59,292 nucleotides of DNA, from the NCBI GenBank assembly GCA_036649735.1, contig JAVWBB010000001.1, positions 1 through 59,292 on the forward strand, in the 5' to 3' direction. The notes beneath the pieces were generated by a model. It had not been told where the DNA came from. It was given only the letters and a program-made list of their open reading frames with translations, and did no database searches. A program made the position numbers and the translations under genes. Below, piece by piece: positions 20,401 through 59,292 of the stretch; position 1 is the first letter of the stretch, and every line of letters starts with the position of its first letter. The DNA is from Bacilli bacterium. Its GTDB lineage: Bacteria; Bacillota_I; Bacilli_A; RF39; UBA660.

Positions 20401-22097
20401 TTACCTGTTTGTGTTATCTCAAGTGGATAAATCCCACTAGGTTTAAACTTTGTGAATGAATTGCTCCAACTATTATCTACGGACATATAACTTACTATAG
20501 CCTTCATCCAACTAGCTTTAAAATCAATAACTATTTCATCAGGAATATTATTTGTATAAGTAATTGGAATAATAGCAATATTTTGATGATAGTTTTTATC
20601 ATATATTATTTTTGCATTAGGATAATTAGTAATCCAATTATTAAATGCTAAGTCCGTAGGATGATTAGTAAAAGGATTGTCAATTAAAGGAAATTTAACA
20701 TAGTCCCCACTAGGTGATGAAATGATATTAAAAACTTTATAATACGTAAAAGTATCTTGTAATTCAGTTAAAGAAACACTCGCACTTAATATTTCATTAT
20801 TAAAAAGTGTTGTATTTCCATAATAATTAATTTGAAACTTTGCCAATGTTTTTTCATTATATAAATTTTGGTTAATACCCGTAGGCAATTTCCCATTGTT
20901 ACTAGATGTATAATTTAATCCTGTATACTTATTCCAATCACTTTCTAAATCATTAACATAAACAATATTTCCTGATATACCCGAATTATGTTGACTAATT
21001 GTATGCATTTTAATAGTAGATGATTCTTTTTGATAACTATTTTTTATAGCCAATTTATTAATCAACTCTATAGAAGTCCCCACCATTTTCCATTCATAAG
21101 GCTCTGATAATAAAGTGTTTTCTTCTAATAATAAACTAGCAATATCTATGTTGACATTATTTAAATTTGAAACGTTTTTATTATCTATTTTTTTATAAAT
21201 ATTATTTAATATAGAATTAGTATTTTTAAACCCATAAATGTAATTGGTACTTGTTGTCGATTTAATTACTTTGCTATTTATAATAATATTTTCAAGAGAT
21301 GTTATAGCGTTAGTATTTAGATATCCAACTGTTCCCCCATCATAGGAATAATTTGGTAAATCAATGATTACTTCAACCATACTGTGCATTATTTTGCTAT
21401 TATCTAATTGTTCTCCAATAATTCCACCTATCTTATGAATAGATGATGACCCTAATGTCGATGATTTTATATTAATGTTCTTAGTAGCGATATTTTTGAT
21501 TAAGGAAGAGTTACTTAGTTTCCCAGATAGTGTCCCACCCACAATTTCATTAACTGTGTTTTTCAAAGTAATATTTATATCTTCCAAATTTAAATTTTCA
21601 ATTGCTCCGTTTTCAATTATAGAAAAAATCCCATAATAATCAATATTATCTATAGTTACAGGTTCTATTTCTTTAAAATTTTTAATAGTATAACCATCAC
21701 CATTAAAATGCCCTTTAAAAAGGAACAAATCGGTGTTTATTTTTTTACCAATTGCCGTAATTGAAAACCCGCCTAAATTAATATTTGAACTCAACTTATA
21801 ATATTTAGTATTATAAATATTATTTTCTGATGATTCTATTTTGTTTTTAAAATATATAAATTCTGCCCCATTAGAAATTTGATAAGGATTTTCACGTGTT
21901 CCATTGCCTTTATTAAAAGAGGTTGCAATGGTATGCCCATCCCAGACAGCTTCATCTGGTAATAAACTACTAAGTGTTTTAGGGCCTATAAAAATATTAT
22001 AACCAATATAAATAGTAACGATAAGAAGTAAAAACAATGCACTATTTAAAAATAACGTTTTCTTAAGTTTTTTATTTTGCTTTTCTTTGTTCATCAT
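14496..22097 (-). CDS. Giant 2,533-aa surface protein: N-terminal anchor/signal, GLUG-like region, long parallel beta-helix of YGG(G/S)N repeats, beta-rich C-terminal domains
   Basis: A single 7.6-kb ORF with RBS GGAAAGGAG. N-terminal TM LFLNSALFLLLIVTIYIGYNIFI. Residues about 60-330 resemble GLUG-type modules (FKGHFNGDGYTIKNF, IGGIIGEQ). Residues about 860-1650 (DNA about 17150-19520) carry dozens of about 20-aa repeats such as NVYGGGN, SIYGGSN and NIYGGGN. No C-terminal LPXTG. Confidence 0.85.
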   Translation of the reverse strand: MMNKEKQNKKLKKTLFLNSALFLLLIVTIYIGYNIFIGPKTLSSLLPDEAVWDGHTIATSFNKGNGTRENPYQISNGAEFIYFKNKIESSENNIYNTKYYKLSSNINLGGFSITAIGKKINTDLFLFKGHFNGDGYTIKNFKEIEPVTIDNIDYYGIFSIIENGAIENLNLEDINITLKNTVNEIVGGTLSGKLSNSSLIKNIATKNINIKSSTLGSSSIHKIGGIIGEQLDNSKIMHSMVEVIIDLPNYSYDGGTVGYLNTNAITSLENIIINSKVIKSTTSTNYIYGFKNTNSILNNIYKKIDNKNVSNLNNVNIDIASLLLEENTLLSEPYEWKMVGTSIELINKLAIKNSYQKESSTIKMHTISQHNSGISGNIVYVNDLESDWNKYTGLNYTSSNNGKLPTGINQNLYNEKTLAKFQINYYGNTTLFNNEILSASVSLTELQDTFTYYKVFNIISSPSGDYVKFPLIDNPFTNHPTDLAFNNWITNYPNAKIIYDKNYHQNIAIIPITYTNNIPDEIVIDFKASWMKAIVSYMSVDNSWSNSFTKFKPSGIYPLEITQTGNSNIIDKKYENAIMAGYYREKRIPLNSSLNGFYDNLGNLQTSGICTNNTGCIYYELIQYYNEYGAKEVIDSSQTYFYLVTRDTNILVLDKSVEDTWTTAESKPFTLTSVYNKTDYRSNIVWTVRAIAVTCYADTTIENILINSNQQDYIASPSSNIAAQRYLYGNWFNLRLGRGIKHLNNYKNFTTVLGGKNNASGSNTSVAKYSLIIESGYYNSIGVSNGRVANDFNNYLAAKGVYGNDFDRIKNDNSLLDIYFCAASSWGGVIYGENALSEAFDITVKSGSFGSGKYDLTSGIYVGGRSGGTYHASKKINYLGGYTYNLIGGPLTDSTRELVNDTYMYVSGGFIDMITGGAGTTATYGNRLIQVTGGTVNYSIFGGSNGVNGSGSDGLLNGSAFVYVGGNATVGLADNVTNNRTLYGSEAGSVFGIGNGRQGFDLIGSADNSTIIIDGNATINRNVYGGGNFGAVGISSSKPTTSTKIRINGGNIKGSVYGGGNRNGSGSSRISSTVDILMTSGKVFGNIYGGSNELGTIFGNVSIKMYGGEVGTSIYGGGQGGFVNNDNKGTFVTGNIDVVVGKTDILTIPSVLDSVYGGSAYGVVNGDSQNVNVSPNSTTVIINKGTITNAVYGGARGNTTFTPSVNGNILVNINGGNIGNVYGGNDAAGIPNGTIEVNLNGGTIGNAFGGGNNTGTNTTKITLAGATTTLLFGGSNSNGNINKTEILLLSGVANNVYGGNNLGGFVTNSFITMNNSNITGSVYGGGKFANTTNAEVHLNGGNALAAYGGGESASVTNTKVYLNGSSITSIYGGSNVTGDVSSAFINSTSGTSKNVYGGNNAGGTTSNVEMVINGGNIDNIYGGGNKAITHNVVVTTNGGIIGNIYGGGNLAEITNNVILNINNTTITDSIYGGGNLGNINKNVQLRINNSTITNNVYGGGNKADVIGNTTTGVSGTTVINGNLFGGGDSGAIGVELNNNSVATLNIAGATINKNVYGGSNTSVVYGTTNVNIGRKALEDINLKAGNIEIIGTVFGGGEANASGSEIFDYSFICVTVAIHINIDGKPYLSNAQKFNLTGSIFGSGNASSSSGTSDIYIGYLGTKSSPSRNISIQRSNTVIMDNSFIELSGATDRTNEYSTIKYSFNRIDLLKVKNNTTLLLKQNANLLKRLDSLVDINNIEVKSTVTIDDLTKQVAKNVDNRLYLMANKNLNISTNEAATSYGIINGMMFFGMYNSYNNGLLGYGLYDTNFGYGSVADAGDVIMGGSYVLGLHNLNHDITKDGFYTNYIDNAYTKITTAYINPTPPSATYYMWLIGTQAINYSFGLNASKYSSLGTYELSMLDFAKGNTIFNVIGFNCEGLSGGVTLKDASDVPKIATNDTEANSVLGLSMKSETTEWTMYGTTKFLSSNKGAYTGMKNYKTDNVSTAPSLMFYLYHAKNISLDANLGTVIITLQALTPINQIEYEVSLVTVTIDIMAKSYTDGNYYDSSITYDKKYEMPSSTTVNITNKSQFTAYYSLYAKGESLDKIYGNNNTYYHALTSNFVLPVGTKITLLDYETKTNTPGYYYYVVDDANYLTKQQELTNYHEVTYRLSDFIKMGSTSLTNKYSDKAANNLYYNSTNKVAMEEFLVIFDFKATTSAIVSPNNTILFELRNSEDRPIISVLGIRQDIMKYSLYNVTNVSLKEDAKFENNYVYHETDAKIIFSSMVTYDQTLNREPIIDTNYESSKMGLNISFKDNSGNTLSSSLLMGSLIKVNNDVTYVDSGGVFRVKLADKVSNLNPNISFYAKNKLPPGIYKMIITLFASNDGLHNSGTLAVDTKELTFTLVGDNNLIIVSSTPENKIVDKTTGLNMSGSKLEKYTVKYDSELINPNIRITLYKRTIINENDVNYVEMDIRKLFTSTFTFPAAVSLVAQTPFEYALSVNKAVDNLFQFELDNILATGTYKLVFRLYDNNHFIDEDTDSLIIKNNIIMP

Positions 22098-24931: not shown

Positions 24932-25038
24932 CCGTTTTGCCCTCCTAAATAATTTATACATTGAATTATAGCACATTAAGTAAATTTGTACACATATTTT
25001 TATATTTATTTTTCATACTAAACTTAGGTGGAGGTATT

Positions 25039-26994
25039 ATGAAACATATTAAAAAGATAGTAAAATTTAGTTTTTTTTTAATAATAATAGGTATTCTAAT
25101 TGTTTTAGGAAGTTATGGGTATGCCAAACTTACTCCAAAATTGCAAATTAAAAGTGCGAATAGTATTTCCTTATATGATAATAAAGGAGAATTATACTTT
25201 AGAGGAAATGGCTCAAGTGAGTGGATTGCCCTAAAAAACATTTCTAAAGACTTAATTAATTCCACTATTTATGCCGAAGATAAAAACTTTTATAAACATT
25301 TTGGATTTGATTTATTAAGAATAGCTAAAGCTTCTTTTATCAACATTACAAGTGGAGAAGTAAAACAAGGAGCATCAACCATATCTCAACAATATTCTAA
25401 AAATTTATTTTTAGACTTTGAACAAACTTGGAAGAGAAAATGGGATGAATTATGGCTGACAATTAAGTTAGAATCTAATTATGATAAAAACGCTATTTTA
25501 GAAGGATACTTAAATACTATTAATTATGGACATGGAATGTATGGAATAGAAAATGCTGCTAAATATTATTTTGACAAAAGTGCGGCAGATTTAAATTTAG
25601 CAGAAGCTAGTATGTTAACTGGAATTCCTAAATCTCCAGCTAATTTCTCACCATTAGTTAATTTAGAAAAAGCTAAATATCGCCAAAAGATAATTTTAAA
25701 TTTAATGGTCAATAATAAAGTAATTACTAAAGAAGAGGCTAAAACTGCTTATGATACAGAATTAAAATTTATAGGTAAAAAAGATTTAATTAATTTAACA
25801 ACCGTTATGTATTATCAAGATGCTGTTATTAAAGAATTAAAAACCCTTAAAAATATTCCTAATTCTTTTTTAGAAACAGGAGGATTAAAAATATATACAA
25901 ATCTTGATATTGCCTCACAAACATTAATGGAAAACACTATTAATACTAACTTTGGGGAGCAAAACACTTTACAAATATCTTCAATAATGATGGACCCTAA
26001 TACAGGAAAAGTTTTTGCTTTAACGGGAGGAAGAGACTTTTCTAAATCTCAATTCAATCGAGCAATTCAATCTAAAAGACAAGTAGGTTCAACAATGAAA
26101 CCCTTTTTATATTATACAGCTTTAGAAAATGGATTTACTGGAAGTACGGCTTTTACTAGTAGTGAAACAACATTTACTTTTTCTAATAATAAAACTTATT
26201 CTCCTAAAAACTCAGGTGAAAAGTATGGTAATAAACCTATATCTATGGCAACCGCTATCGCATACTCAGATAATATATATGCTATTAAAACACATATGTT
26301 TTTAGGGGAAGAAATGCTTGTAGATTTTGCTAAACGAGTAGGAATTAATGCCAAACTAGAAGCTGTTCCTTCTCTTCCCCTTGGTACAAGTGAAATAAAT
26401 ATAATGGAACTAACAGCAGGATATTCAGCTTTTGCCAATGAAGGGTATAAAGTAACTCCACATTTAATTAATAAAGTAGAAGATGTTTATGGGAATATTT
26501 TATATCAAAATAATGGACTTAAAGAAGGAGTATTAAATAAAAGCATTACTTATATTTTAAATAATTTGTTAACTTGTACATATGATTCAGCTTTTATTGA
26601 TTATAACTATCCTACAGCAATTACAATCGCCCCTAAAATGACAAAAACTTATGCCATTAAATCAGGAACTACTGATACAGATACATGGTATATAGGATAT
26701 AATAAAGATGTTATTACATCTGTATGGATAGGATATGATGATAACAAAGTAATAGAGGCTAATGAATATAAATACTCTAAAAACATATGGTTAGAATTAA
26801 TGGAAGGATACTTAAAAGATAAAAAAAATAATTGGTATACTATGCCTAACAACGTTGTTGGAGTAATTGTTGATCCTATTAGTGGAAAGCCTGCTATTGA
26901 ATCTACAAAGAAAAAGAAATTAATGTATTACATAAAAGGAACGGAACCAACTAATACCGATAAAGTATTTGATGAAATTGAAAAAAAAGAATAA
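25039..26994 (+). CDS. Class A penicillin-binding protein (glycosyltransferase GT51 + transpeptidase)
   Basis: GT51 motifs EDKNFYKHFGFD, GASTISQQ and RKWDE. Transpeptidase motifs STMK, YSDN and KSGTT. ATG 25039 follows GGTGGAGG; the track ORF starts at 24961. Confidence 0.9.
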   Translation: MKHIKKIVKFSFFLIIIGILIVLGSYGYAKLTPKLQIKSANSISLYDNKGELYFRGNGSSEWIALKNISKDLINSTIYAEDKNFYKHFGFDLLRIAKASFINITSGEVKQGASTISQQYSKNLFLDFEQTWKRKWDELWLTIKLESNYDKNAILEGYLNTINYGHGMYGIENAAKYYFDKSAADLNLAEASMLTGIPKSPANFSPLVNLEKAKYRQKIILNLMVNNKVITKEEAKTAYDTELKFIGKKDLINLTTVMYYQDAVIKELKTLKNIPNSFLETGGLKIYTNLDIASQTLMENTINTNFGEQNTLQISSIMMDPNTGKVFALTGGRDFSKSQFNRAIQSKRQVGSTMKPFLYYTALENGFTGSTAFTSSETTFTFSNNKTYSPKNSGEKYGNKPISMATAIAYSDNIYAIKTHMFLGEEMLVDFAKRVGINAKLEAVPSLPLGTSEINIMELTAGYSAFANEGYKVTPHLINKVEDVYGNILYQNNGLKEGVLNKSITYILNNLLTCTYDSAFIDYNYPTAITIAPKMTKTYAIKSGTTDTDTWYIGYNKDVITSVWIGYDDNKVIEANEYKYSKNIWLELMEGYLKDKKNNWYTMPNNVVGVIVDPISGKPAIESTKKKKLMYYIKGTEPTNTDKVFDEIEKKE

Positions 26995-39776: not shown

Positions 39777-40658
39777 TTATTTATCCATTCCTATAATTTC
39801 TAATATCCTGTTTAAATCGTGAACATTAGTAAATGAAATTTCTATTTTATTGTTTTTTATTTTAACTCTAGTTCCTAATTTTTCAATCATTGTCTCTTCA
39901 ACATATTTATATTCACTATTTTTTAATTCATGATGTTCGTTTTTTACCTTTTTTTCATAAATATCATCTTTTGCTAATTCTTCTAATCTTCGCACATTTA
40001 AGCCTTGTTCTACTATTTTTTTACCAAGTTCTAAAACTTGATGTTTATTTTCAATCTTGCTAAGTACTCTTGCATGTCCCATTGATATTTCATTATTTAT
40101 AATCATCTGTTTTATATCCTCAGGTAAATTTAAGATCCCAATCATATTTGTAATATGGCTACGACTTTTACCTAATTTAAGGGATAATTGTTCTTGAGTT
40201 AAAGATAATGATTCAATTAACTTCTTATAAGCCATCGCTTCTTCTAAAGCATTTAAATTTTCTCTTTGCAAGTTTTCTAAAAGTGCTATCTCCATCATTT
40301 CTTCATCTGTAAAATCTCTAATAATAGCGGGTATTGTATCAAGCCCTGCCAAAATAGAAGCTTTTACTCTTCTTTCTCCGGCAATTATTTCATATCCGCG
40401 AATACTTTTTTTAGCAATTATCGGTTGAAATACACCGTGTTCTTTAATTGAATCTGCTAATTCTTGTAAAGCTAATTCATTAAAGTTTTTTCTTGGCTGA
40501 TATGGATTACTCCTTAATTCTTTTAGTGAAATCTCCATTATTTCTTCAGCTTTAGCAGTTGTTATAATATGTTCTTCAATTTTGTTTACATCAAGAGTTG
40601 TCGTATTAAACAATTCCTCTAATCCTCGGCCTAATGCTCTTCTTCTAGATGTTTCCAT
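39777..40658 (-). CDS. parB: Chromosome partitioning protein ParB/Spo0J
   Basis: RRALGRGLEELF N-terminus, GERRVKAS (GERR box), and a Spo0J-type recognition region GKSRSHITNMIGILNLP...ISMGHARVL. Confidence 0.9.
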   Translation of the reverse strand: METSRRRALGRGLEELFNTTTLDVNKIEEHIITTAKAEEIMEISLKELRSNPYQPRKNFNELALQELADSIKEHGVFQPIIAKKSIRGYEIIAGERRVKASILAGLDTIPAIIRDFTDEEMMEIALLENLQRENLNALEEAMAYKKLIESLSLTQEQLSLKLGKSRSHITNMIGILNLPEDIKQMIINNEISMGHARVLSKIENKHQVLELGKKIVEQGLNVRRLEELAKDDIYEKKVKNEHHELKNSEYKYVEETMIEKLGTRVKIKNNKIEISFTNVHDLNRILEIIGMDK

Positions 40659-41433
40659 TTCTTTGAATCACTTCCTTCGCTAAATTTAAATAAGCTTCTG
40701 AGCCTCTACTTTTAGGGTCATACGCTATAATTGGCTTTCCATGTGATGGTGCTTCAGTTAATCTAATAAGTCTTGGTATAATTGTATTATATACTCTTTC
40801 TTTAAAATATTTTTTAATATCTTCGACAACTTCTAATCCTAAGTTAGTTCTAGAATCTAACATTGTAAGTAGGACTCCTTCGATATCTAAATTAGGGTTT
40901 AAATTTTTTTGGGCTAGAGCAATTGAATTAAGCAACTGCATAATTCCTTCCAAAGCAAAAAACTCGCATTGTACGGGTATAATTACCGAATTAGAAGCTG
41001 TTAAAGCATTGGTTGTTATTAATCCTAATGATGGTGGACAATCAATAATTATATAATCATAGTACTCTTTAATCGTATCTAAATGCATTTTTAATTGTTC
41101 ACTACGCGAAAATCCTTCAATACTATAACTTTTTTCCATTAATTCTAAATCAATACCTGCTAAATTAATTGTAGCTGGTAGTAAATGCAAATTTTTATAT
41201 TTAGTTTTAACAATTGCTTCATTAATAACACAGTTACCTGTTAAAACATCATAAATACATTTATCAATATCACCCTTATTAATACCAACACCCGTTGTAG
41301 TATTTCCTTGAGGGTCTAAATCAATTAATAAAGTCTTTTTACCTAATAATGCTAAAGATGCCGATAAGTTGATACTTGTTGTTGTTTTACCTACGCCACC
41401 TTTTTGATTAACCATAGATATAATCTTTCCCAT
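40645..41433 (-). CDS. parA: Chromosome partitioning ATPase ParA/Soj
   Basis: Deviant Walker A NQKGGVGKTTT. ATG 41433 follows GAGGAAG; the track ORF runs to 41454. Confidence 0.9.
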   Translation of the reverse strand: MGKIISMVNQKGGVGKTTTSINLSASLALLGKKTLLIDLDPQGNTTTGVGINKGDIDKCIYDVLTGNCVINEAIVKTKYKNLHLLPATINLAGIDLELMEKSYSIEGFSRSEQLKMHLDTIKEYYDYIIIDCPPSLGLITTNALTASNSVIIPVQCEFFALEGIMQLLNSIALAQKNLNPNLDIEGVLLTMLDSRTNLGLEVVEDIKKYFKERVYNTIIPRLIRLTEAPSHGKPIIAYDPKSRGSEAYLNLAKEVIQRNGNI

Positions 41434-41536
41434 TTTTCCACTTCCTCTATTCATTATTTATATTCTACCAAAATTATTAAACTTTGAATACCTTTTTCGT
41501 TTAAAAAAGTAGATTTTATTCTACTGTTTTGTTTTA

Positions 41537-42757
41537 CTAATTTTTATCGATAGTAATAATAATTTTATACTTGTCTTCAAAATCCATTTCCTCTGTATCA
41601 ACTATAAAACCAGATCTTTCTATTTTCTTAATTAAATCTCGAGTTGTATTAATCGCACTTTTTAAATCAAATACATCTAAAGCTTCAGCATTATTTTTAT
41701 AATTGTTATTAATTAGTACATTAGATATATTATTTAAACTTTCAAGTTTTTCATCTAAACTTTCTATGTCTTCAACTTCATTATTTATAATAGACTCAGG
41801 CTCTTCATTTACAACTGGAGTTGTTTTAATAGAATCAATAAACATCGTGTCAGTTTTAAATTCTTCCTTAGGCGTTACTTTTTCAAATGAATTGATAATT
41901 GCAGGTGTATCAACAACTACATTTTCACTAGTTAATTCTTTTATTTCATCATCAAAGGAAGGAATGAATTTATAATTCTGTTCTTTAAAAGGGACCTCGT
42001 CATTAGTTTTTAATAATGAATCTAAATTAGCCAATGGTTTTTCAGGTGGAAGAATATCCTCATAAGCACTTTTAATTTCATTTATATTACTTGGACTTTT
42101 ATATATATTATTTGATATATTAATTGAAGGAGTGTTAATTGTCTCAGAAATATTAGAAGACATCCCTTTTATTAGTAAATCTAATTCGCGAACGGTCATT
42201 TTATTAGTTATAATTTTATCTAGCATCGCAATTTGTTGCTCTTTTTCATTTAAATTAAGTAAAGTTCGCGCATGTTTTTCTGATATTTTTTCTTGTAAAA
42301 GGGCATCTTGAATTTCAATTGGCAATGACAACAATCTTAATTTATTAGCAATGGATGATTGAGATTTACCCATAGTAACCGCTAATTGCTCTTGCGTAAT
42401 TGGATCTAATTCTAATATTTTTTGAAATGTACGCGCTTCTTCAATAGGATTTAAATCTTTTCTTTGCAAATTTTCTAGCAATGCTACTTTAGAAGATTCT
42501 TTATCATCTAAATTTCGAACAATCGCGGGTATTTTTGTAAGACCGGCTAAAGTAGTAGCCTTATATCTTCTTTCTCCAGCAATGATCTCATATTTATCGC
42601 CAATGTTACGTACAATTATTGGTTGTATTACACCGTGTTCTTTTATTGATGCTGCTAATTCTTTTAAAGCCGCATCTTCAAATATTTCTCTTGGTTGAAA
42701 TCTATTAGGAATTATATCATCTAAGTACAATTCAACTATTTCTCTTTCATTATTCAT
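41537..42757 (-). CDS. noc: Nucleoid occlusion protein Noc (ParB paralogue) with an expanded internal linker (406 aa)
   Basis: PNRFQPREIF, GERRYKAT, and a Noc-type recognition region GKSQSSIANKLRLLSLP...ISEKHARTL (compare B. subtilis Noc GKSQSTIANKLRLL...ERHAR). Position between rsmG and parA as in Bacillus. Confidence 0.8.
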   Translation of the reverse strand: MNNEREIVELYLDDIIPNRFQPREIFEDAALKELAASIKEHGVIQPIIVRNIGDKYEIIAGERRYKATTLAGLTKIPAIVRNLDDKESSKVALLENLQRKDLNPIEEARTFQKILELDPITQEQLAVTMGKSQSSIANKLRLLSLPIEIQDALLQEKISEKHARTLLNLNEKEQQIAMLDKIITNKMTVRELDLLIKGMSSNISETINTPSINISNNIYKSPSNINEIKSAYEDILPPEKPLANLDSLLKTNDEVPFKEQNYKFIPSFDDEIKELTSENVVVDTPAIINSFEKVTPKEEFKTDTMFIDSIKTTPVVNEEPESIINNEVEDIESLDEKLESLNNISNVLINNNYKNNAEALDVFDLKSAINTTRDLIKKIERSGFIVDTEEMDFEDKYKIIITIDKN

Positions 42758-42977: not shown

Positions 42978-43607
42978 ATGAAAGATTATAAAAAGCCCCT
43001 TTTAATACTTGGTGTTTTAGCCTTAATTATAGGTGTTATTACTATTCCTATGTTACTAAAAAAAGAAAAAGGTACTAAAATTCAGTATAAAAAATATTTA
43101 ACTGAAAATAGAGCCCTTAATAATACTATCAATGGATATGATGAAAAATTAAAACTTAGCTTTGCTGAATATCAAAGTGGTAAAATGACTGCTGATCAAT
43201 ACTTTAATAAAGTTGAAGAAATTAGAAAAGATAAAGATAAAGTTAAAGCTGAACAATTAAATTTAAAGAAAGAATATAAACTAGACGGCGATTTAAAAGA
43301 TGTTGTATTTAGTGATAATAAAGAAACTGATGCTAAACTTAAAGATTTATTTTTAAAGAGTCAAGCTTTAGAAGAAGAAGATGAGAAGTTAGATAAAGAA
43401 GAGGAAGCTTTAGAAAAATCATTTGAAGATGGTGCTATTTCCGAAGCTGAATTTGAAACTAAAAAGGCCGCTATTGAAGCAAGAGAAGAAGCCTTAGAAT
43501 CGCAAGAAGAAGAATTAGATGCTCAAGAAGATTTATTAGACATTGATGATGAAGATGATAATGAAACTGAAGATGATGAACAAGATGATGATAAGGATAC
43601 TGATTAA
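42978..43607 (+). CDS. Hypothetical membrane-anchored coiled-coil protein with a highly acidic tail (209 aa)
   Basis: TM LLILGVLALIIGVITIPMLL, Lys/Glu-rich heptad-like middle, C-terminal DDEDDNETEDDEQDDDKDTD. Confidence 0.55.
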   Translation: MKDYKKPLLILGVLALIIGVITIPMLLKKEKGTKIQYKKYLTENRALNNTINGYDEKLKLSFAEYQSGKMTADQYFNKVEEIRKDKDKVKAEQLNLKKEYKLDGDLKDVVFSDNKETDAKLKDLFLKSQALEEEDEKLDKEEEALEKSFEDGAISEAEFETKKAAIEAREEALESQEEELDAQEDLLDIDDEDDNETEDDEQDDDKDTD

Positions 43608-49738: not shown

Positions 49739-49914
49739 TTTTCCACAATATCCACAGATATGTTGATAACTTTATTAGTAATGTTGATAATTATTTTTCT
49801 AAATTGTGGATAAGTCCATTATTCTTTTATTTAAGTGCGAATTGCTTGTGGAAAAAGGTGTGGATAAGTTGTTGATAACTTTTTTCATAAAATTTTTACT
49901 TTATTTTTTCCACA
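49739..49914. other. oriC upstream DnaA-box cluster (rpmH-dnaA intergenic)
   Basis: Perfect TTATCCACA boxes (reverse) at 49805-49813 and 49859-49867. One-mismatch boxes at 49739-49747, 49748-49756, 49847-49855 and 49906-49914. Three TTATCAACA boxes at 49761-49769, 49782-49790 and 49870-49878. Confidence 0.85.
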
Positions 49915-51331: not shown

Positions 51332-51444
51332 TGTGGATTAAATTTTAATATTCAATATTTATCCACAGGCAATTTTTAAAAGTAAGCTTAATTTTAAACA
51401 AATTTAAGACTTATCCACAGTATACACAGTAATAATAATAATAA
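51332..51444. other. oriC downstream element (dnaA-dnaN intergenic): DnaA boxes plus a TAA trinucleotide array (DnaA-trio-like)
   Basis: Perfect TTATCCACA at 51359-51367 and 51411-51419. TAATCCACA (reverse) at 51332-51340. A degenerate box at 51420-51428. These are immediately followed by TAATAATAATAATAA at 51430-51444. Confidence 0.75.
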
Positions 51445-52719: not shown

Positions 52720-53169
52720 TTGAAAGAAAACTATGAGATTAATAATGAAACATTAGCTATTTTACCATTAAATGCTAAGACTTCAAAAGTAATTGAAGTA
52801 AATAATGAGTATATTATTAATCGAAGTTCATATCAAATAATGGAAGCAAGTTGTAAATATTTTGGTAGCTCAATGAGTGGACGAATCGAAGGAGCAAATG
52901 AATTAATTGGCAGTAAATATAAAGCACCAATCTTAATAGACGATAGTCGAGAAATAATATTTATTCCAACAGAGGCTATTACAAATGTCAATTGCCATTG
53001 GATTTCATTAAAATATATTTCAGATTTTACTAGTTTAGATAAAAAGACTAATGTTGTCTTTAAAAATGGTAAAATGCTTGATGTTGATATTTCAAAAGGA
53101 TCATTTGAAAATCAAATATATCGAGCTTCTAAACTTGGTTATATTATTAAATCAAGACAAAAAGAATAA
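52720..53169 (+). CDS. comK: ComK-family competence transcription factor-like protein (149 aa, short)
   Basis: ASCKYFGSSMSGRIEGANELIGSKYKAPILIDDSREIIFIPT...CHWISL parallels B. subtilis ComK (CRFFGSSYAGRKAGTYEV...KPPIMVDPSNQIFLFPT...CGWIS). TTG start after GGGGGAAAG. Confidence 0.7.
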   Translation: MKENYEINNETLAILPLNAKTSKVIEVNNEYIINRSSYQIMEASCKYFGSSMSGRIEGANELIGSKYKAPILIDDSREIIFIPTEAITNVNCHWISLKYISDFTSLDKKTNVVFKNGKMLDVDISKGSFENQIYRASKLGYIIKSRQKE

Positions 53170-56385: not shown

Positions 56386-58863
56386 ATGAATGATGATGTA
56401 ATTAGAAATGATCGTTTAGCAGATAGAGAAATAACTAAAGAAATTGAAGAATCTTTCTTAGATTATTCAATGTCAGTTATTGTTGCTCGTGCTTTACCCG
56501 ATGTACGTGATGGATTAAAACCAGTTCATCGTAGAATAATTTATGCGATGAATCAATTAGGAATTTATCCTAGTGTTAAATATTTAAAATCAGCAAAAAT
56601 AGTTGGTGAAGTAATGGGAGATTTCCATCCTCATGGTGATGCTAGTATATATGATACAATTGTTAGGATGGCACAAAAATTTACGTATAGGTATTTAATG
56701 GTTGATGGACATGGTAACTTTGGTTCAATAGATGGTGATGGTGCAGCAGCTTCTCGTTATACAGAAGCAAGAATGAGTAAATTATCAATGGAAATGGTTA
56801 GAGATATTAATAAAGATACGGTAAACTTTGTTGATAACTACGATGGGCGTGTTAAAGAACCAGAAATTTTACCTTCTCGTTTTCCTAATATTATAGTAAA
56901 TGGAACCTCAGGAATTGCTGTAGGAATGGCTACAAATATTCCCCCACATAATTTAGGAGAAGTAATTGATGGAACAGTGGCATTTATTGATAATCCTGAA
57001 TTAACCAATTTAGAAATGATGCAATATATTAAAGGGCCAGATTTTCCTACTGGTGCTACTATATTAGGAAATTCTTCTATTAAAAGAGCTTATGAAACTG
57101 GTAGGGGAATAATTACAATTAGGTCAAAATGTGAAATAAAAGAAAATAAAAATGGAAAACACGAAATAATTGTAAGTGAAATACCATATCAAGTAAATAA
57201 ATCAGTTTTAATACAAAAAATCGCTGATTTAGTTAAAGATAAGATAGTTGATGGAATTTCTGATTTAAGAGATGAATCAAACAAAGGTATTATAAGAATT
57301 GTTATTGAAGTTAAAAAAGAAGCAAATGCTAATGTAATTTTAAATAATTTGTTTAAACACACACAGTTACAAGCATCTTATGGTATAAATTTATTAGCGC
57401 TTGTAAATGGCGAACCTAAAACACTAAGTTTAACTGAAATTTTGGGGCATTACATTAATCATCAAAAGGAAGTTATTATTAGAAGAACTAAATTTGATTT
57501 AAATAAGGCGGAAAATAGAGCTCATATTTTAGAAGGATTAAAAATTGCTTTAGATAATATTGATGCCGTTATTAAATTATTACGAGCTTCTAAGACTGAT
57601 GCCGAAGCAAAAATTGGTTTGGCAAATAACTTTAATTTATCAGATATTCAAGCAGAAGCTATTTTGGAAATGAAACTAAGAAAATTAACAGGCTTAGAAA
57701 AAGAAAAAGTAGAAGCTGAATTAAGAGATATTTTAATATTTATTGATAGTATGAAGGAAATATTGGCAAGTGATGAAAAAGTATTAGAAATAATTAAAAA
57801 AGAATTATTAGAAATTAAAGATAAATATGGTGATGAAAGAAGAACAGAGATCGATATGACAAGTATAGAGTATATAGAAGATGAATCTTTGATACCTGTT
57901 GAAGATATTATAGTCACTTTAACTAATAAAGGATATATAAAGAGAATTTTAATTGATACTTATAGAAGTCAAAGAAGAGGCGGCGTTGGAGTTAAAGGAA
58001 TGACTACTAATGAGGAAGACTTTGCGGAGCATTTAATTTCTATGAGAACACATGATTATATTCTATTCTTCTCAAATAAAGGGAAAGTGTACCGATTAAA
58101 AGGTTATGAAATTCCTTTGTTTGCTAGACAATCTAAGGGTTTACCAATAATTAATTTGTTACCACTTGAAAAAGATGAGGCCATTAATTCTGTAATTAGA
58201 GTTAATACCGAATTGGAAGAAAATAAATATTTAGTATTCTTCACAAAAAAGGGACTAATTAAAAAGACTGAATTAAGTGAGTTTGATAGTATTAGAAATG
58301 GTGGTAAGATTGCAATTAAATTAAAAGATGATGATGAACTTATAACTGTTAAGAAATCAGATGGAAATCACGAGATATTAATTGGTTCATCAAATGGTCG
58401 AATGGTTCGATTTTTAGAAAAAGAAGCAAGGCCATTAAGCAGGAATGCTTCTGGATTAAAGGGTATTAATGTTGGCGAAGGCTATGTAGTTGGTGCTGAG
58501 GTAATAAATGAAGACCAACAAATATTAATAGTTACTGAGCTAGGATTTGGCAAACGAACGAATGTTCGTGAGTATAGGCTAACTCATAGAGGCAGTAAGG
58601 GTGTAGCAGCATTAAAGATAACAGAAAAGAATGGTAATCTTGTTGCTATTAAAGCTGTTGAAGGAATCGAGGAAGATTTAATGATAATTACCGATAGTGG
58701 AATAATTATTAGAATGCCAATGGAACAGGTTGCTAATATAGGAAGAAATACACAAGGATCAAGATTAATTAATCTAAAAGATAATCAAAAGGTAGCAACT
58801 GTTGCAAAAATTAAAAAACAAGAAGAAGAAGAAATTGTAGAAGATAGTGAAGAAGACATTTAA
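56386..58863 (+). CDS. gyrA: DNA gyrase subunit A
   Basis: QRDR-type GDFHPHGDASIYDT, active-site region AAASRYTEARM, and C-terminal beta-pinwheel repeats. Confidence 0.97.
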   Translation: MNDDVIRNDRLADREITKEIEESFLDYSMSVIVARALPDVRDGLKPVHRRIIYAMNQLGIYPSVKYLKSAKIVGEVMGDFHPHGDASIYDTIVRMAQKFTYRYLMVDGHGNFGSIDGDGAAASRYTEARMSKLSMEMVRDINKDTVNFVDNYDGRVKEPEILPSRFPNIIVNGTSGIAVGMATNIPPHNLGEVIDGTVAFIDNPELTNLEMMQYIKGPDFPTGATILGNSSIKRAYETGRGIITIRSKCEIKENKNGKHEIIVSEIPYQVNKSVLIQKIADLVKDKIVDGISDLRDESNKGIIRIVIEVKKEANANVILNNLFKHTQLQASYGINLLALVNGEPKTLSLTEILGHYINHQKEVIIRRTKFDLNKAENRAHILEGLKIALDNIDAVIKLLRASKTDAEAKIGLANNFNLSDIQAEAILEMKLRKLTGLEKEKVEAELRDILIFIDSMKEILASDEKVLEIIKKELLEIKDKYGDERRTEIDMTSIEYIEDESLIPVEDIIVTLTNKGYIKRILIDTYRSQRRGGVGVKGMTTNEEDFAEHLISMRTHDYILFFSNKGKVYRLKGYEIPLFARQSKGLPIINLLPLEKDEAINSVIRVNTELEENKYLVFFTKKGLIKKTELSEFDSIRNGGKIAIKLKDDDELITVKKSDGNHEILIGSSNGRMVRFLEKEARPLSRNASGLKGINVGEGYVVGAEVINEDQQILIVTELGFGKRTNVREYRLTHRGSKGVAALKITEKNGNLVAIKAVEGIEEDLMIITDSGIIIRMPMEQVANIGRNTQGSRLINLKDNQKVATVAKIKKQEEEEIVEDSEEDI

Positions 58864-58878: not shown

Positions 58879-58908
58879 GCTAAAAATTTATATTAAAAAT
58901 CTGTTCAA

Positions 58909-58924
58909 TGTTTCACGTGAAACA
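58909..58924. promoter_or_regulatory. parS site (perfect palindrome TGTTTCACGTGAAACA), copy 1
   Basis: Matches the Bacillus-type parS consensus TGTTNCACGTGAAACA. Confidence 0.85.
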
Positions 58925-58944
58925 TAGTAAATGAGGTAACAAAT

Positions 58945-58960
58945 TATTTCCCGGGAAATA
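58945..58960. promoter_or_regulatory. Noc-binding site (NBS) TATTTCCCGGGAAATA, copy 1 (inside the 20-bp palindrome 58943-58962)
   Basis: Contains the B. subtilis NBS core ATTTCCCGGGAAAT exactly. Confidence 0.8.
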
Positions 58961-59028
58961 ATCAAGAGTATAAAACTACAATATAATCTTTAAAATCCCT
59001 ATATATTATAAAGGAAAACACCGTCCAA

Positions 59029-59044
59029 TGTTTCACGTGAAACA
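59029..59044. promoter_or_regulatory. parS site, copy 2
   Basis: Identical 16-mer. Confidence 0.85.
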
Positions 59045-59064
59045 TAGTAAATGATATAACAAAT

Positions 59065-59080
59065 TATTTTTTGGGAAATA
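59065..59080. promoter_or_regulatory. Degenerate NBS (TATTTTTTGGGAAATA), copy 2
   Basis: The left half-site is mutated (CCC to TTT), so palindromy is lost. Confidence 0.5.
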
Positions 59081-59148
59081 ATAGATGGTATAAAACTATA
59101 ATAGAATCTTTAAAATCCCTATATATTATAAAGAAAAACACTGTCCAA

Positions 59149-59164
59149 TGTTTCACGTGAAACA
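59149..59164. promoter_or_regulatory. parS site, copy 3
   Basis: Identical 16-mer. Confidence 0.85.
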
Positions 59165-59184
59165 TAGTAAATGCTGTAATAAAT

Positions 59185-59200
59185 TATTTCCCGGGAAATA
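59185..59200. promoter_or_regulatory. NBS TATTTCCCGGGAAATA, copy 3
   Basis: Identical to copy 1. Confidence 0.8.
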
Positions 59201-59268
59201 ATAGAGGGTATAAAACTATAATAGAATCTTTAAAATTCCTATATATTATAAAGAAAAACACTGTCCAA

Positions 59269-59284
59269 TGTTTCACGTGAAACA
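59269..59284. promoter_or_regulatory. parS site, copy 4 (the array continues beyond the window)
   Basis: Identical 16-mer, 8 nt from the window end. Confidence 0.85.
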
Positions 59285-59292
59285 TAGTAAAT

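Follow-up and report, generated by a model that had tools for sequence, protein, structure and literature searches.

What does a regular DNA repeat do next to a bacterial replication origin when its units combine the binding sites of two related chromosome-organizing proteins? This question is raised by the right end of the window, i.e., the entire 59,292-bp contig JAVWBB010000001.1 of a metagenome-assembled genome (MAG) of an uncultured gut bacterium registered at NCBI as 'Bacilli bacterium', which has a G+C content of 26% and stops inside an array of 120-bp tandem repeats. The units carry parS, the site of the partition protein ParB/Spo0J, and a second palindrome that equals the Noc-binding site (NBS). 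For the divergence of DNA-binding specificity after gene duplication, ParB and Noc serve as the textbook example; both are sliding clamps gated by cytidine triphosphate (CTP), and their sites have so far been described as separate sets. We consider it probable that the array is a chromosomal centromere of composite units, at which ParB would load at parS and a Noc-like paralogue at the interleaved NBS. Binding and function are read here from the sequences of the sites and of the encoded proteins.

Sites and repeat structure of the array

In the window, the array covers positions 58901..59292 and comprises 3.3 units of the tandem repeat, as seen with Tandem Repeats Finder (period 120, 91% matches, score 665) and by comparison with a sister assembly (see below); it is by far the strongest repeat that this program found in the window. 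The parS sequence TGTTTCACGTGAAACA was present without mismatch at 58909..58924, where it lies within the 18-bp palindrome ATGTTTCACGTGAAACAT, and at 59029..59044, 59149..59164 and 59269..59284, the steps being exactly 120 bp; the contig ends 8 bp after the fourth copy. The NBS sequence TATTTCCCGGGAAATA was found in perfect form at 58945..58960 and 59185..59200, while the copy at 59065..59080 reads TATTTTTTGGGAAATA and has a degenerate centre with intact arms. In each unit the NBS starts 21 bp past the end of its parS, which places the two sites 36 bp apart from centre to centre. The NBS is embedded in a 20-bp palindrome, ATTATTTCCCGGGAAATAAT, and the NBS palindrome ATTTCCCGGGAAAT is perfect in two of the three window copies. 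No further match to either motif was detected across the 59 kb with up to three mismatches allowed. Shuffled sequences gave 0.26 ± 0.5 parS matches, and none of 100 shuffles reached four. The positions and the shuffles agree with the original prediction of four parS copies at exact 120-bp intervals, and the motif scan with its description of the NBS as perfect in copies 1 and 3 and degenerate in copy 2; the sites are indeed the consensus parS and the consensus NBS.

The array adjoins the origin, as had been proposed. DnaA-box searches revealed one cluster upstream of dnaA (49739-49914), which is also supported by the GC skew, and another one between dnaA and dnaN (51332-51419). The sign of the GC skew changes near 50 kb, and the array starts 7.6 kb to the right of dnaA. 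Its left boundary is formed by gyrA (56386..58863, + strand), identified by gene annotation and synteny, and this boundary of the centromere spacer is kept across the clade.

A GyrA protein identical to that of the window is also encoded on contig JAVVUS010000003.1 (GCA_036652995.1). Outside the array, this contig and the window show 23 differences in ~11,500 aligned bases (about 0.25% diverged), and GCA_036652995.1 therefore represents the same species. Its array (L001, 12521-13624) is complete, with 9.2 units in about 1.1 kb and unique DNA on both flanks, and fills the spacer between gyrA and a gene for the small signal recognition particle (SRP) RNA (Rfam RF00169, 53.5 bits), which is followed by tadA, dnaX, ybaB and recR. 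The extension of the contig, a check that had been proposed, was thereby achieved and showed that the array ends before the SRP RNA gene. The sister array contains ten parS cores at exact 120-bp steps, nine of them perfect and one with its outermost base changed to C. An NBS-like palindrome is present in every one of the nine full units; three are perfect, and the others carry one to three mismatches in the centre. Of the claim that the units combine perfect copies of both sites, the parS part thus held for nine of ten copies, but the NBS part did so for only three of nine in the full array. The third unit of the window has no exact counterpart among the sister units (best match 113/120), which would be due to variation between strains or else to a chimeric end of the contig.

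Pairwise diversity was computed for each segment of the 120-bp unit in the array of this species. It was 0.014 for the parS 16-mer and 0 for the 9 bp to its right, compared to 0.215 for the remainder of the unit, the spacer, in which 34 of 68 columns are variable. Judged by these values, parS is under strong constraint. The ten outer arm positions of the NBS, including the Noc-specific A1/T-1, also had a diversity of 0 over nine units. The centre CCCGGG reached 0.315, and all departures from the NBS consensus (L001 12560-13535; window 59065-59080) are C>T or G>A changes within it. As far as this array tells, the NBS arms are conserved in this species while the NBS centre decays.

Other explanations of the repeat as such were tried and rejected. 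BLAST with three units as query found no more than short chance matches rich in AT and thus no hint of a plasmid or phage origin, and the composite parS-NBS pattern was absent from 2.9 million viral contigs. A known RNA gene does not account for the repeat, since the Rfam search was empty in the window and in the sister locus matched only the SRP RNA downstream of the array; no tRNAs were found in the RNA-gene search. An array of promoters was dismissed because promoter-like matches (17) were not above those in shuffles (12.9 ± 3.6), and there were no terminators.

ParB, Soj and the Noc-like protein

The opposite side of oriC carries mnmE, mnmG and rsmG, followed by the genes of a 406-aa ParB-family protein (41537..42757, - strand), the 269-aa Soj/ParA ATPase (40645..41454, - strand, assigned by gene annotation) and the 293-aa ParB/Spo0J (39777..40658, - strand). 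The 406-aa protein occupies the noc position of the gene order rsmG-noc-soj-spo0J, which is present with one extra open reading frame (ORF) between rsmG and the noc-like gene in this species.

The specificity of ParB and Noc is set by positions 173, 179, 184 and 201 in Caulobacter numbering (Jalal et al., 2020; PMC7383237). According to that study, ParB is characterized by R173 and G201, and Noc by Q173, K179, K184 and R201, where a single lysine at 179 or 184 suffices as permissive residue; the A at position 1 of the site is read by Q173, and the C at position 6 (C:G pair) by R201. Alignment to solved structures gave the corresponding residues: R, M, N and G in the 293-aa protein, which is the parS type, and Q, K, S and K in the 406-aa protein. 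With R173/G201 in the one and Q173/K179 in the other, the predicted presence of parB and an atypical noc 16-19 kb away from the array was supported. The CTP motifs GERR and ENLQR are kept in both proteins, the first one in ParB as GERRxKA, and the N-terminal RRALGRGLEELF peptide of ParB is of the ParA-activating type (LGRGL).

In the comparison with solved structures the 406-aa protein was closest to Noc (E = 1e-59), and it will be called the Noc-like protein in the following. Its residue 5 aligns to residue 26 of Noc, so that it starts ~22 residues later than canonical Noc. The start codon is preceded by a good ribosome-binding site, and in-frame stops lie just upstream. Because of this late start and the upstream stops, the protein must lack the 10-residue membrane-targeting helix. 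Residues 200-360 (~160 aa) form an acidic and poorly conserved linker of variable length, which is followed by a conserved C-terminal domain. Within this otherwise unconserved linker, the motif PEKPxADLDSLLK (residues ~238-249; 42011-42046, - strand) is kept in many family members; it may be a partner-binding peptide, and with its L-x-x-L-x-x-L-L pattern it bears a loose resemblance to the ParA-activating LGRGLxALL of ParB proteins.

As a sample of the family, we inspected the best 120 homologues of the Noc-like protein. They are 297-496 aa long, and all those with a named source come from 'Bacilli bacterium' MAGs. A short N-terminus was found in 116 and the residues Q, K, x and R (x mostly S, T or A) in 118 of them; the lack of the membrane-targeting helix is thus a trait of the family. 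K201 occurs in this sample only in the species studied here and in its 98% orthologue.

The extra ORF between rsmG and the noc-like gene (orf209, 42978-43607, + strand) encodes a protein of 209 aa that combines a single transmembrane helix at the N-terminus with a long tail of acidic coiled coil, and for which neither Pfam nor NCBIfam gave a match. It was considered as a conserved tether partner of the Noc-like protein and discarded, since the relatives checked lack it at this position.

parS and NBS in related Bacilli

For an overview of clustered parS across bacteria, one genome per species was scanned for two perfect cores 105-135 bp apart. Such pairs are present in at least 120 species, and the matches listed include Actinomycetota, Bacillota, Alphaproteobacteria, Chloroflexota, Patescibacteria and others, with about 29 loci among them that have at least five perfect cores within 8 kb. 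The genome of the window was not among the matches listed. Dense chromosomal parS clusters are common across phyla and hence ordinary in themselves, and the premise of the original prediction that chromosomal parS sites are normally dispersed single copies is not supported. In a related Bacilli MAG, ten parS with a strict 55-bp period were found downstream of gyrA within the tadA-dnaX stretch (L084, 5384-5879), and no NBS was present within this 8-kb locus. Tandem parS arrays thus arose more than once in the clade.

In the genome scan, 15 loci belonged to low-GC Bacilli, and every one of them has its parS cluster between gyrA and tadA or, on contigs that are cut, directly upstream of tadA. In two of them parS alternates with perfect NBS: L025 from a circular 1.5-Mb genome assembled from long reads (period ~126 bp, NBS perfect in 6/6 units) and L023 (period ~62 bp, NBS perfect in 7/7 units). 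The spacer DNA of both loci looks unrelated to the 120-bp unit of the window. The closest relative by GyrA (L122, 67% identity) has seven perfect parS interleaved with four perfect NBS, and Tandem Repeats Finder detected no tandem repeat in this locus. Since the motifs alternate there without a repeat, they are maintained individually and not via duplication of a unit. A special role of the 120-bp phase, as suggested originally, is not supported by these relatives, in which the period is ~62 or ~126 bp or a repeat is missing altogether.

For comparison we used 80 metagenome loci that were picked only by the similarity of their GyrA (53-67% identity) and allowed one mismatch at most per site. 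Neither parS nor NBS occurred in the 546 kb from dnaN to gyrA. The gyrA-tadA spacers (56.8 kb) contained 146 parS and 68 NBS, and the 217 kb from tadA onward 9 parS and 26 NBS. The proposed comparison of relatives thus showed both motifs to be co-selected in the gyrA-tadA spacer. When the loci were grouped into 69 species-level clusters, 24 had both motifs, 24 only parS, 6 only NBS and 15 neither, many of the latter being contigs that end at gyrA. The extended, palindromic clade consensus is A-TGTTTCACGTGAAACA-T for 245 distinct parS contexts and AAAT-TATTTCCCGGGAAATA-ATTT for 120 distinct NBS contexts. To judge from the sources of the sequences, the clade that shows this co-clustering consists of uncultured low-GC Bacilli of gut, rumen and other metagenomes; the NCBI labels of its members include Bacilli, Mollicutes, Tenericutes and Candidatus Onthocola. 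Of the metagenome contigs, 22/80 end no more than 350 bp past gyrA, and the window contig likewise ends in its array. Because short-read assemblers apparently break at these arrays, such centromeres would be lost, collapsed or under-represented in MAGs.

Measured from centre to centre, neighbouring parS and NBS tend to lie 26-27, 36-38, 56-58 or 67-68 bp apart (L023, L025, L131, L138, L140, L142, L211 and others). A Rayleigh test of the phasing gave p ~1e-3, with little difference between 10, 10.5 and 11 bp as the period and with data that are not independent. This weakly suggests a preferred offset of roughly half a helical turn in ~10.5-bp steps.

Outside the centromere, origin loci of relatives (21 kb each) have single NBS at three recurrent places, namely the mnmE-mnmG spacer, the surroundings of the junction of rsmG and the noc-like gene, and the interior of dnaX; no parS was found outside the gyrA-dnaX zone. 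The NBS is perfect in the mnmE-mnmG spacer left of oriC in L210 (4590), L211 (4589), L212 (4585), L202 (7348) and L203 (7346), and likewise in the dnaX coding sequence ~1.5 kb past the tadA start in L128 (11055), L170 (10690), L172 (10808) and L210 (19367). The species of the window has neither the mnmE-mnmG nor the dnaX site, and no NBS lies outside its array in 68 kb. As the sites recur in relatives, the Noc-like protein has several predicted places of action near the origin, with the centromere as the main concentration. A ParB-family gene is located beside rsmG in 12 of 12 origin loci of relatives, and Noc-type residues were readable in eight of them. Four relatives (DnaN 67-98% identical) of a lineage that had been chosen as parS-only all have the gene, and one of them carries an NBS in the spacer.

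A few other genes of the window deserve mention. A ComK-family gene (52720-53169, + strand; Pfam E = 6e-43) is located between dnaN and recF in the core origin block, and its placement is the same in every examined relative that covers this stretch. A class A penicillin-binding protein with transglycosylase and transpeptidase domains is encoded at 24961-26994 (+ strand), and the organism is therefore probably walled, although some relatives are labeled Mollicutes or Tenericutes. An ORF of 2533 aa (14496-22097, - strand) contains no Pfam domain at E ≤ 1e-5.

A probable composite centromere and its alternatives

Several of the findings weigh against a centromere used by both proteins. Only three of the nine NBS of this species are perfect, no part of the unit varies more than the NBS centre, and the NBS is not indispensable, because 24 of 69 related lineages have parS only. 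The Noc-like protein reaches 287 bits with the NCBIfam Noc model TIGR04285, for which the cut-off is 315, and the membrane helix required by canonical Noc is missing. It has K201 instead of the R of its family, so that the predicted Noc-like binding may be weak or lost in this species. Furthermore, the ParB-family gene beside rsmG is present in every retrieved lineage, including four relatives of one chosen as parS-only, which leaves no gene-less contrast for linking the gene to centromeric NBS. By these sequence features, selection on the NBS half of the system appears to be relaxed here. K201 and the decaying centre would point either to a relaxed readout of the centre or to a weakening interaction of the Noc-like protein with the NBS, as judged from a single lineage; the centre changes and K201 could be a case of co-variation, or the changes could be due to methylation-driven decay of the CCCGGG site.

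Taken further, these points would lead to a parS-only centromere that loads ParB and whose NBS-like palindromes are relics: left over from an ancestral composite unit, they would be decaying and no longer used by the Noc-like protein of this species. The restriction of all changes in this most variable segment to C>T or G>A, with 3/9 sites left perfect, would fit such relics, as would the signature QKSK, shared by only one of the best 120 homologues, its own 98% orthologue, and the many relatives with parS only. However, the ten outer arm positions including A1/T-1 are invariant in 9/9 units, whereas the spacer is variable at 34 of 68 columns; three perfect 16-mers persist, and the noc-like gene is intact and has kept its CTP motifs. 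We therefore regard relics as rather unlikely, yet as the most serious of the alternatives. According to another explanation, which was part of the original prediction, a canonical Noc loaded at the NBS serves as the membrane tether of the centromere and competes or cooperates there with ParB and SMC. NBS sites and a noc-like gene are indeed present, and Z-ring assembly in B. subtilis is held back by Spo0J and Noc together (PMC6852036). The tether itself is not supported, as the protein lacks the membrane-targeting helix: its start, with a good ribosome-binding site and in-frame stops upstream, lies ~22 residues downstream of that of canonical Noc, 116 of the best 120 family members share the short N-terminus, and its linker is acidic and poorly conserved. 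In B. subtilis, removal of the first 10 residues of Noc abolishes liposome binding, and nucleoid occlusion is impaired in such a variant (PMC8429893). A tether of this kind is improbable.

The second palindrome might also be the operator of another regulator, e.g., for the SRP RNA, tadA or dnaX, and resemble the NBS by coincidence. The sites are located upstream of ffs, tadA and dnaX, and relatives have extra copies in or near dnaX. But the 16-mer is identical to the experimentally defined NBS of B. subtilis and S. aureus, a Noc-type paralogue lies beside rsmG in every lineage with readable residues, and up to nine copies alternating with parS are unlike the layout of an operator, so that we give this explanation very little weight. 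Even less credible is an assembly artefact, a generic intergenic repeat of the REP (repetitive extragenic palindromic) type, or an integrated plasmid or phage centromere. An artefact might be suspected because the window contig ends in the repeat and its third unit has no exact match in the sister assembly (best 113/120). Yet an independent assembly reads through the array, and the circular long-read genome has a syntenic one. In the 59-kb window plus ~9 kb of the sister contig, neither parS nor NBS was found outside the array; the unit is thus confined to a single locus there and not scattered like a REP element, which had been named as an observation that would speak against the prediction. 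Core genes flank the array, with a synteny that extends to dozens of relatives, which argues against a plasmid or phage centromere.

The composite centromere favoured here resembles several known systems. With the ParABS system of the B. subtilis type it shares the identical 16-bp parS, the proximity to the origin, the location of soj-spo0J beside rsmG and noc, and a ParB with R173/G201, the CTP motifs and the N-terminal ParA-activating peptide. The parS sites of B. subtilis are spread around the origin region and not packed into one spacer; here, in contrast, ten sites follow each other at exact 120-bp spacing in a single intergenic region. In the sopC centromere of the F plasmid, a 43-bp repeat with an inverted repeat in it occurs 12 times in tandem. 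Head-to-tail units with one ParB-type inverted repeat each are common to both, but the present array is chromosomal, is flanked by core genes with synteny in the clade, and has two motifs per unit; it is located between gyrA and ffs/tadA, and searches revealed no plasmid, phage or viral similarity. Clusters of many consensus parS near oriC that form one hub for partition and SMC loading are also found in Corynebacterium glutamicum, with ten parS in 35 kb (PMC7083940), and in Myxococcus xanthus, with 22 clustered parS (PMC3899335). The cluster described here differs from these in being about 30-fold denser, a true tandem repeat, and interleaved with the sites of a second protein. With the Noc-NBS systems of B. 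subtilis and S. aureus it has in common the identical NBS core, the position of the noc gene, Q173/K179, the CTP motifs and, in relatives, single NBS at other origin-proximal places. Differences are the missing membrane helix, the long variable linker, the NCBIfam score below the cut-off, and K at 201 and S at 184. Moreover, the sites of this clade are concentrated in the centromere and not only scattered, as compared to 41 Noc loci over the S. aureus chromosome's origin-proximal half (PMC5540599).

If the array acts as a composite centromere, the 293-aa ParB would load at the ten parS as a CTP-gated sliding clamp and spread over the origin region, and it would work with Soj and recruit SMC as known for ParABS systems. 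As a second CTP clamp, the Noc-like paralogue would be loaded likewise, but at the NBS between the parS sites. Two populations of paralogous clamps would then start from one stretch of ~1 kb and cover one and the same origin domain, and the array would multiply the loading rate for both proteins. Direct membrane tethering being unlikely because the helix is missing, the Noc-like protein is probably no membrane tether by itself, and a function in the organization of the origin domain or in the timing of replication or division is more likely; a partner bound to the conserved short motif of its linker could be involved. In S. aureus, Noc reaches 8-10 kb around each of its sites and controls replication initiation (PMC5540599), which is a precedent for a role in timing. 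With a spread of this extent, loading of the Noc-like protein at the array and at the mnmE-mnmG site of relatives would cover oriC. A role in division would have its counterpart in the joint action of Spo0J and Noc on the Z-ring mentioned above (PMC6852036).

In the literature searched, we found no report of interleaved parS and NBS or of a Noc without the membrane-targeting sequence (MTS). parS clusters and NBS are each known; the new part would be their regular alternation at a centromere, in a clade whose Noc is predicted to be without the helix. Tentatively, and with clearly less confidence than for the composite centromere as such, the MTS-less Noc might be a second centromere clamp that acts beside ParB at composite parS-NBS dyads with preferred spacings (about 26, 36, 58 and 68 bp, close to half-integral helical turns) and not a tethering nucleoid-occlusion factor. 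This could be a state ancestral to the membrane-binding Noc or a derived re-targeting to the origin. If it is true, these Bacilli would possess a two-paralogue centromere. With loading sites only tens of base pairs apart and up to 19 per kilobase, the arrangement raises the question of whether paralogous clamps share the DNA, block each other or pass. It also asks what a Noc without membrane helix does, and whether the origin region may have been Noc's original place of action.

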